Below the pieces are notes generated by a model. That model was not told the origin of the DNA. It saw nothing but the letters and a program-made list of their open reading frames with translations, and made no database searches. From assembly GCF_013122565.1 (NCBI RefSeq), contig NZ_CP053258.1: a stretch of 64,000 nucleotides of DNA; one strand, 5' to 3'. Positions 54,183 through 61,797 of this stretch are shown here, in pieces. How positions within the stretch are numbered: the first letter of the stretch is position 1; each line of letters starts with the position of its first letter. The position numbers and the translations under genes are program-made. Source of the stretch: Escherichia coli. Its GTDB lineage: Bacteria; Pseudomonadota; Gammaproteobacteria; Enterobacterales; Enterobacteriaceae.

Positions 54183-55331
54183 TTACACGTGAGCAACGGG
54201 TTTCGGCGTATGACCGGCGTTGCGAAGCAACATCAGCAAATAGATAAACGATACGCTGGCGATCATGATAAACAATAAATTATCGGAGAAATTCTGCATT
54301 AGCATAGCGGTAAATGACGGGCCAAGCAGACTTCCCACGGTATAGCTCAACAGTAAGGCCTGGTTCATCGCCACCAGTTGATGATGTTCAACTTTCTCGC
54401 AAGCCCAGGCCATCGCCACCGGATATAGCGTAAAGCCAGCGGCACCGAGGATGAATAACGCTGGGGCCATCGCCGCCTGGCTAAGCATCGCGATACTGCC
54501 GAGAATGACGACAAAGACCTGAACACGCAACACCAGCAGTCGACCAAACTTATCCGCCAGACGTCCGATCGGCCATTGTCCGAGGATACCCGCACTGACC
54601 AGTACCGCCATCCAGAAACCAATGCTGGCATTGCTCACCCCTTTGTGATTGAGGTACAGCGGCATCAGGCCATATAGAGATCCCAGAACGATTCCTGAGA
54701 TAATGCAGCCATTCACGCCAAGCCGCGCCTGACGGAGTTTTAGCATTGACGTAATTGACGTCGAATCATGGTTTTCAGCCTGCTGATTCAGGACACGTGT
54801 AAACAACAGCGGTAAGATCCCTGCCAACGTCAAACCTGTAACCCACGGCAATACGCTCATCAGCTCGGTTGAGACTTTGCTGACCAGTAACTGGCCTAAA
54901 AATGTTCCCACGTAATAAACCATCATATACGCAGCAAGCAAACGCCCACGGTTACGTGACGTTCCACTGCACATCAGCGCGCTCTCAACGACTACCCAAA
55001 TCATGGCACAGCCGACGCCCGCGACAAAACGCCACGCCAACCAGCTCCAGAAACCAATCATCAGGCCAAGGCCGGCACAGCCAGCGGCAAAAATGAAGGA
55101 GGCCAGATAATAGCTGCGGTTAAAGCCAATGCGTTTAATGACATACCCTGTCAGCAATGTACCGACAAGGTTGCCGGTAAAATAGGATGAGCTGACAACG
55201 CCTACCTGCCATGTGGACATGTGTTCCTGGGCGAGCCAAAGCGGCACGAGTGTATTTAACACCGCGATCGCCAGAGTCAACAAAAGCAGGCCAGACAGCA
55301 AAAGCATGACAGGCCGGGTATACGTGGACAT
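54183..55331 (-). CDS. ycaD: MFS transporter YcaD
   Basis: 382-aa [36 protein letters not shown]…; 12-TM MFS pattern. Confidence 0.9.
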
Positions 55332-55645
55332 GAATTAAAACCGTGAGGAAGTTCAAATTTCATGCGCATCATGCCACCGCCAAAAACATTGTCAATGGGT
55401 GAAAATACGCGCATATCGCAGCGGCGGTATTATCGATTTATATTACTCATTCATAACGCTAATGCTGAAGAGATGATTAGTCTCATCTGATTGTTTTTAT
55501 TGATCTAACACAAATTTCATACGCTTCGTTCAGTCGAAAAATTTCATGGTCACAGCAAACTCATATTTCCCGTCTATGCTTTCAGAGCAATGCATCGCGT
55601 CTGACCGATTTCAGACGTACCACTGACTCTCGAAAGGAGAAGAGG

Positions 55646-56272
55646 ATGACCAAACCGTATGTTCGTCTTGATAAAAATGATGCTGCCGTTTTGCTTGTTG
55701 ATCACCAGGCTGGTTTACTTTCCCTTGTACGGGATATCGAACCCGATAAGTTTAAAAATAACGTGCTGGCGCTGGGTGACCTGGCTAAGTATTTCAACTT
55801 ACCAACTATTCTTACCACCAGTTTTGAAACCGGTCCTAACGGCCCATTAGTTCCAGAACTGAAAGCACAATTCCCCGATGCACCTTACATTGCTCGCCCG
55901 GGCAATATTAACGCCTGGGATAACGAAGATTTTGTAAAAGCAGTCAAAGCGACAGGTAAAAAACAGTTAATTATTGCCGGTGTGGTAACCGAAGTTTGCG
56001 TGGCATTCCCGGCGCTTTCAGCCATTGAAGAGGGGTTTGATGTGTTTGTCGTGACTGACGCATCAGGGACCTTTAATGAAATTACCCGGCATTCGGCGTG
56101 GGATCGCATGTCGCAAGCTGGTGCGCAATTGATGACATGGTTCGGCGTGGCTTGCGAGCTGCACCGTGACTGGCGTAATGATATTGAAGGACTGGCGACG
56201 TTGTTCTCTAACCACATTCCTGATTATCGTAATTTGATGACCAGTTATGACACGTTAACGAAGCAGAAATAA
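55646..56272 (+). CDS. ycaC: Isochorismatase-family hydrolase YcaC
   Basis: 208-aa ORF MTKPYVRLDKNDAAVLLVDHQAGLL…; catalytic Cys context VVTEVCVAFPA. Confidence 0.9.
   Translation: MTKPYVRLDKNDAAVLLVDHQAGLLSLVRDIEPDKFKNNVLALGDLAKYFNLPTILTTSFETGPNGPLVPELKAQFPDAPYIARPGNINAWDNEDFVKAVKATGKKQLIIAGVVTEVCVAFPALSAIEEGFDVFVVTDASGTFNEITRHSAWDRMSQAGAQLMTWFGVACELHRDWRNDIEGLATLFSNHIPDYRNLMTSYDTLTKQK

Positions 56273-60483: not shown

Positions 60484-61797
<1,314 letters not shown>

Follow-up and report, generated by a model that had tools for sequence, protein, structure and literature searches.

The window considered here is the whole stretch of Escherichia coli DNA that was analyzed, 64,000 nucleotides (64 kb) in length. 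Within it, the genes ycaD and ycaC diverge from a shared spacer of 314 bp, as established by comparing the window with annotated E. coli chromosomes, to which the ycaD/ycaC region is 99-100% identical. The coding sequences were taken from the list of open reading frames together with the RefSeq annotation of matching E. coli genomes: ycaD (54183..55331, minus strand) encodes an MFS transporter of 382 amino acids, and ycaC (55646..56272, plus strand) encodes an isochorismatase-family hydrolase of 208 amino acids. The same list places ycaM past ycaD and dmsCBA past ycaC. The spacer is moderately A/T-rich, with a G + C content of 41%. In one E. coli strain (NZ_CP144926.1) an IS1A element splits the matched ycaD-ycaC stretch, and in a few genomes the region is also found on plasmids, where 7 places were matched.

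A sequence-only reading of this DNA had drawn attention to a 9-mer, AAATTTCAT, that occurs three times in the spacer. An exact search of both strands of the window bears this out, with three matches, all on the plus strand: copy 1 at 55355..55363, which reads ATGAAATTT on the ycaD (minus) strand, copy 2 at 55512..55520, and copy 3 at 55539..55547. The count expected in the whole window is 1.25, and the 11 copies with one mismatch in the 64 kb show no obvious pattern. The distances that had been given are also right: copies 2 and 3 are 27 bp apart when measured start to start, the end of copy 1 is 23 nt from the ATG of ycaD at 55331, and copies 2 and 3, described as about 100-135 bp upstream of ycaC, lie 134 and 99 bp before its ATG at 55646. 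A repeat finder identified a 10-mer, AAATTTCATG, common to copies 1 and 3, and CAAATTTCAT, common to copies 1 and 2. Copies 1 and 3 have nothing in common beyond the 10-mer; of 8 flanking positions upstream, 1 is identical.

The significance of such a cluster depends on what it is compared with. Against shuffled spacer sequence, the enrichment check that had been proposed, the triple is rare (p ~0.001): any 9-mer with three same-strand copies appeared in 0.085% of 20,000 dinucleotide shuffles of the 314-bp spacer (p = 0.00085), whereas a 9-mer pair appeared in 21% and a 10-mer pair in 6%. Against real sequence it stands out less. As a control, the whole 64-kb window was searched for all 9-mers that occur three times within 314 bp without overlap, and this yielded two triples, AAATTTCAT itself and CATCCAGCT, at 61506, 61527, and 61698. 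The second triple (61506-61706) is inside the 430-codon serS open reading frame (60484-61776, minus strand) and probably consists of repeated codons of the serS coiled-coil arm. Triples of this type are found at about one per 32 kb of real sequence, and they can arise without regulatory meaning, since the second one sits in coding sequence. The cluster of AAATTTCAT is locally unusual, yet it is unremarkable because of the look-elsewhere effect.

Start sites and promoters of ycaD and ycaC

Transcription start sites have been published for both genes. In the supplement of Kim et al. (2012), ycaD is assigned a start site at 945064 (U00096.2) on the plus strand with a 30-nt leader, and ycaC one at 944839 on the minus strand with a 59-nt leader. 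The supplement also gives the sequence from -50 to +1 for each start site, which was used for mapping onto the window. Both published 51-nt strings are unique in the window, and they end at 55361 (minus strand) for ycaD and at 55587 (plus strand) for ycaC. Independently, Cappable-seq places a strong ycaD start site at 945064.

A promoter scan identified the core promoter of ycaD (55368..55395, minus strand) as a sigma-70 promoter, with a -35 hexamer TTGACA at 55395-55390, a 16-nt spacer, and a TG-extended -10 hexamer CATGAT at 55373-55368, scoring 10/12 with the TG. The distance from the -10 hexamer to the mapped start site downstream is exactly 7 nt, so that hexamers, spacer, and register are all as in a sigma-70 promoter, and the core promoter is invariant across genera. 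A GC-rich discriminator follows the -10, and a perfect 8-bp palindrome, ATGCGCAT at 55362-55369, constitutes this discriminator between the -10 and +1. GC-rich discriminators are typical of promoters that are sensitive to ppGpp/DksA.

The 5' untranslated leader of ycaD, GAAAUUUGAACUUCCUCACGGUUUUAAUUC, is 30 nt long (55332..55361, minus strand; start site 55361), as mapped from Cappable-seq and Kim et al. (2012). Between genera, its positions +1 to +24 hardly vary, less than the first codons of ycaD do. The leader has no recognizable Shine-Dalgarno sequence and contains the CU-rich CUUCCUCAC; it may be a site of post-transcriptional control or pairing. RNA polymerase initiates ycaD transcription at the G of ATGAAATTT, and copy 1, which makes up the start-site region of the sigma-70 promoter together with the first bases of the invariant leader, is therefore conserved as positions -2 to +7 of ycaD. 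A second, distal ycaD promoter near copy 3 was rejected, as Cappable-seq lists no further ycaD-strand start site upstream within the spacer. In glucose-limited chemostats, ycaD is lower in a cya mutant.

On the other side of the spacer, a consensus scan combined with the start site of Kim et al. (2012) defines a sigma-S-type promoter for ycaC (55573..55587, plus strand), with the -10 element TCTATGCTT at 55573-55581, the start site at 55587, and a 59-nt leader. The element matches the sigma-S extended -10 consensus KCTAYRCTT at 9/9, a score seen in 1.5% of shuffles. In the literature, ycaC is strongly RpoS- and Crl-dependent, activated by BaeR, and repressed by FNR; the reported RpoS dependence and a 9/9 -10 in register with the start site are together what is looked for in a sigma-S promoter. 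The -35 region of ycaC is not conserved in the alignment. Sigma-S promoters that lean on upstream contacts usually lack a conserved -35.

Further observations concern the regulation and history of ycaC. Deletion of ycaN lowers ycaC and raises ycaD (PMC9068703); the same paper notes that regulation of both genes by Nac is predicted in EcoCyc. Neither this paper nor the work on the cya mutant defines a site in the spacer. A perfect Nac-type ATA-N9-TAT motif, ATATTTCCCGTCTAT at 55563-55577, overlaps positions -24 to -10 of the ycaC promoter, and it is not conserved outside Escherichia. Compared with all other genera, C. werkmanii and C. freundii (L002 and L085) have a 71-bp insertion in the ycaC leader, between the -10 and the ATG, located at about 2400-2480 in L002. 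Proteins with 86-92% identity to YcaC occur in Pseudomonas, Marinobacter, Vogesella, Geobacter, Sphingopyxis, and others (loci L004-L080), a level unusually high across orders and classes that suggests extreme constraint or frequent horizontal transfer.

Conservation of the spacer within and beyond E. coli

Within the species, 30-mers around copies 1, 2, and 3 are found exactly in 5414/5424, 5289/5421, and 5346/5421 complete E. coli genomes, respectively, and the triple is a species-wide feature of E. coli. This conservation (at least 97.6% exact) is uninformative on function because overall identity is about 99%. Strain K-12 MG1655 (L081) is without one base at window position 55411 (CGCG-ATATC), and it has TTGAAC where the window has TTGATC at 55500-55505, with the loss of a GATC and a weaker FNR-like half-site.

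Orthologous spacers provide the more distant comparison. Those with both genes come from a divergent Escherichia lineage (L001), a second Escherichia whose YcaD is 89% identical (L082), four Citrobacter species (L002, L003, L083, and L085), Intestinirhabdus (L089), and Atlantibacter (L088); Salmonella (L084), Leclercia (L086), and Enterobacter (L087) have ycaD without ycaC. Across the ten non-E. coli sequences, identity to the window is 0.90 for copy 1, 0.44 for copy 2, and 0.98 for copy 3, with a spacer mean of 0.67. Copy 1 occurs as the variants AAATTTCAC, AAAATTCAC, and AGATTTCGT, which vary at motif positions 2, 4, 8, and 9. Copy 3 varies at position 5 only, its sole variant being AAATCTCAT in two Citrobacter species. 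At the place of copy 2, the sequence is AAACTTCAT in the divergent Escherichia lineage L001, AACGTTCTT in Escherichia L082, and AAAAATCTC in Citrobacter, where the stretch is unalignable. Three exact copies of AAATTTCAT are found in E. coli only, and other genera have two, one, or none.

These patterns speak against the three copies being one motif. Repeated sites for a transcription factor are expected to be conserved in orthologues in all their copies, and copy 2, at 0.44, is less conserved than the spacer as a whole (mean 0.67). Such sites would also be expected to resemble one another over a longer stretch and to tolerate the same substitutions, and copies 1 and 3 do neither, varying at different positions. 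Several sites for a single protein do not evolve in this way, with unlike substitutions, unrelated flanks, and an unconserved copy 2.

The alignment divides the spacer into four conserved blocks. Block A (55338-55397) takes in the two ycaD promoter hexamers (-35 and -10) along with the start site and the leader. Block B (55433..55452; -72 to -91 of ycaD), recognized from per-column conservation, reads TCGATT and then TTACTnATTC. Block C, TTGTTTTTATTGAT (55491..55504; -130 to -143 of ycaD and -96 to -83 of ycaC), is conserved in at least 9/10 sequences over most columns. Block D, AGTCGAAAAATTTCATGG (55531..55548), is an A/T-rich presumed factor site of 18 bp that is nearly invariant in 13 sequences. 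Copy 3 forms its right-hand half, and the block lies at -57 to -39 of ycaC and about -180 of ycaD. This 18-bp block holding copy 3, AGTCGAAAAATTTCATG, is nearly invariant across seven enterobacterial genera, including the Salmonella, Leclercia, and Enterobacter that have no ycaC. Relative to the ycaC start site, copy 3 itself spans -48 to -40 and copy 2 spans -75 to -67; relative to that of ycaD, the two copies span -178 to -186 and -151 to -159, respectively.

The spacing of the blocks is conserved too. In 13/13 sequences the distance from block A (for block D, from the ycaD -10 region within it) is 68-69 bp to block B, 127-128 bp to block C, and 171-172 bp to block D; the 1-bp difference is due to a single-base indel between A and B, and the DNA between the blocks has freely diverged. 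On the ycaC side, block D is 25-27 bp from the -10 element and 36 bp from it in Atlantibacter (L088), where an insertion of 10 bp, one helical turn, keeps the block on the same face of the helix as the -10. Because its distance to both the ycaD and the ycaC promoter is fixed, block D is a possible shared cis element of the divergent pair.

The association of block D with the two genes is uneven. It is present in 9/9 loci with ycaC and ycaD and in 3/3 loci with ycaD only, and its best match among 77 ycaC loci without a ycaD neighbour is at most 11/17, which is background. These 77 loci (mostly Pseudomonas, with some Serratia/Yersinia) belong for the most part to distant taxa, in which a conserved promoter would not be expected in any case. 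Judged from these alignments, block D travels with ycaD and not with ycaC. In Salmonella, Leclercia, and Enterobacter, ycaC is missing between dmsC and ycaD (upstream of position 2501 in these loci); of its -10, Salmonella retains a decayed trace, TCTATGGAT. In Leclercia and Enterobacter the deletion junction is one and the same, positioned right after block D and followed by the dmsC terminator hairpin. Block D has therefore been kept since before these genera split, without an adjoining ycaC promoter.

Explanations for the repeated word

The sequence-only reading had suggested a shared regulator site or a repeated promoter element. Part of this holds, as copies 1 and 3 are located in functional, conserved promoter DNA, but the copies do not constitute one motif. 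We think it probable that the three AAATTTCAT words represent separate contexts of an A/T-rich divergent promoter region and not a single regulatory motif. Copy 1 then has its explanation in the ycaD start site, and copy 3 in block D. The most likely role of block D, to judge from its conservation, is to bind a protein, which may be some factor or the alpha subunit of RNA polymerase. It would probably also give an upstream contact to the ycaC promoter, a sigma-S promoter without a -35. Since the block is kept, with its spacing fixed to 1 bp, where ycaC has been lost, we infer that it must also serve ycaD. Copy 2 appears to have been created in the E. coli lineage when point substitutions fell in an otherwise freely varying stretch, and it has no demonstrable role; it is probably a chance word or a young copy specific to that lineage. 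Two observations count against a reading based on coincidence: the probability of the triple (p = 0.00085) and the 10-mer AAATTTCATG shared by copies 1 and 3 at an invariant 183-184 bp. Such a separation combined with AAATTTCATG is also what a looping pair of operators is expected to look like.

Different arrangements of functional sites have been considered in its place. In one of them, copies 2 and 3 (at -75 and -48) are tandem ycaC sites, either for an activator of the sigma-S promoter, for instance a response regulator like BaeR, or for a contact with the alpha subunit similar to that of an UP element. Both copies are upstream of the mapped ycaC start site, the gene is reportedly activated by BaeR, and its unconserved -35 is in keeping with sigma-S promoters that use upstream contacts. 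Furthermore, the distance from copy 3 to the -10 is fixed at 25-27 bp, with one helical turn more (36 bp) in Atlantibacter. Against this, copy 2 is not conserved, and since the two copies are 27 bp apart, or about 2.6 helical turns, they are on opposite faces of the helix. Block D is also kept in the three genomes without ycaC.

Direct scans for the proposed contacts are no more favourable to tandem sites. The BaeR box consensus is reportedly TTTTTCTCCATDATTGGC (Nishino 2005). A scan of the spacer with this consensus gave a best match of 11/18 at 55458-55475 on the minus strand, clear of all three copies. For the UP element consensus, NNAAAWWTWTTTTNNNAAANNN, whose register is -59 to -38, the best match is 10/14 at 55536-55557, equivalent to -51 to -30, a register shifted by 8 nt; an A-tract that covers -53 to -45 of ycaC could still allow a weaker contact with the alpha subunit. 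The tandem arrangement suits copy 3 and not copy 2, and we regard it as unlikely.

In a second arrangement, copies 1 and 3 are operators for one candidate regulator of ycaD, which represses by looping as at gal, lac, and ara, and copy 2 is an auxiliary site specific to E. coli. The two copies do have the conserved separation of a looping pair, 183-184 bp in 13 sequences from seven genera despite the diverged DNA between blocks; the 10-mer AAATTTCATG is common to them, both are within deeply conserved blocks, and the upstream one is kept in genomes without ycaC. However, their likeness ends at the 10-mer, neither site is a shared palindrome, and they are substituted at different positions across species. 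A 10-mer pair is also found in 6% of shuffles, and at 10.5 bp to the helical turn a separation of 184 bp makes 17.5 turns, a phase unsuited to a simple loop. In addition, no regulator gene is conserved beside ycaD in the compared loci. Looping between these copies seems quite unlikely.

A broader proposal takes all of blocks A-D, from -187 to +24, as a four-block cis-regulatory architecture of ycaD, in which the AAATTTCATG pair, at the start site and at about -180, would anchor a looped or wrapped nucleoprotein complex formed by a putative ycaD regulator, and the distal anchor would double as upstream element for the sigma-S promoter of ycaC. It is built on spacing that is invariant to 1 bp in at least seven enterobacterial genera and is retained where ycaC is deleted; we consider it doubtful to a similar degree.

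Nucleoid proteins offer a more general explanation, in which a protein such as H-NS or Lrp would nucleate on the TCGA-starting, A/T-rich blocks B and D, which are separated by 101 bp, and would silence or shape the promoters, with the 9-mer as an incidental part of its A/T-rich preference. The high-affinity H-NS motif is said to be TCGATAAATT; block D contains TCGAAAAATT, a 9/10 match to it, and block B contains TCGATTTATA. The four best matches to the Lrp consensus are on blocks D, B, and A (Lrp-like, 12/15), and fixed spacing would suit a multi-site nucleoprotein complex, but shuffles equal these matches (p = 0.09 for H-NS and p = 0.47 for Lrp), the number of Lrp-like sites is the shuffle mean, and the spacer is only moderately A/T-rich. 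We regard this explanation as quite unlikely.

Consensus scans of the spacer for BaeR, CRP, FNR, Nac, GAD box, IHF, Fis, ArgR, Lrp, CpxR, PhoP, UP element, and H-NS gave no convincing match on the 9-mer. The best H-NS, Lrp, CRP, and FNR scores were reached in 9-47% of shuffles, and among the scans the sigma-S -10 alone stands out. For example, the FNR-like TTGATCTAACACAA at 55500-55513 matches TTGAT-N4-ATCAA at 8/10, which 42% of shuffles attain, and it extends into copy 2 by its last two bases. A conserved FNR site seems unlikely here, as only the left half of TTGATCTAACACAA is conserved, the right half is not, and K-12 has TTGAAC. The one ChIP-exo peak that Gao 2021 assigns to ycaC falls outside the spacer, and a FliA site listed for ycaD lies within the coding region.

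Products encoded by the spacer were also considered. A structured RNA or riboswitch was rejected on the basis of no Rfam match at E <= 1 and an RNAalifold energy of 0 for both strands of 55385-55552. On the ycaD strand all copies read ATG-AAA-TTT, and small open reading frames starting there were rejected: the transcript starts at the G of the copy 1 ATG, and the frames from copies 2 and 3 have 7 and 5 codons in E. coli, differ in length elsewhere, and are preceded by no start site. The plus-strand open reading frame from 55362 was rejected as well, its ATG being lost in several species.

The spacer is thus probably ordinary promoter DNA, and the triple repeat matters little, being mostly coincidence, with two of the copies explained by promoters with mapped start sites. 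The by-product of the analysis is a phylogenetic footprint of the ycaD/ycaC region, consisting of four rigidly spaced blocks of which the distal one survives the loss of ycaC. This footprint supplies an 18-bp probe toward a ycaD regulator, together with base changes for reporter fusions. It also has practical relevance for strain engineers: DNA is integrated into this spacer on the view that it is "neutral", and the replacement that has been published, from -221 to -114 relative to the ycaD ATG, takes out copies 2 and 3 along with blocks C and D.

Comparison with known promoters and operators

Several well-characterized systems provide reference points for the locus. Copies 1 and 3 resemble the gal OE/OI, lac O1/O3, and ara O2/I1 pairs in being two similar short sites, of which the first coincides with the start site and the second lies far upstream, at a separation conserved across genera. 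Unlike those pairs, their likeness covers 10 bp without dyad symmetry, they are separated by a half-integral number of turns, the two copies evolve differently, and there is no known cognate repressor. The arrays of boxes for BaeR, PhoB, and TorR are similar to the locus in that short repeats on the same strand are located upstream of a stress-induced gene reported to be activated by BaeR. In contrast with the spacing of about 10-11 or 21 bp in such arrays, the repeats here are 27 and 157 bp apart and one of them is unconserved, and the published BaeR consensus matches elsewhere in the ycaD-ycaC spacer.

The two promoters compare more closely with their respective classes. Like sigma-S promoters, that of ycaC has a perfect TCTATGCTT 7 bases before the start site, no conserved -35, and an A/T-rich upstream block; unlike them, its upstream block is out of register with an UP element and is kept where ycaC and its -10 have been deleted. 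The ycaD promoter is fully alike to a sigma-70 extended -10 promoter with a mapped start, with no difference between them, and the 9-mer there is the start-site sequence itself.
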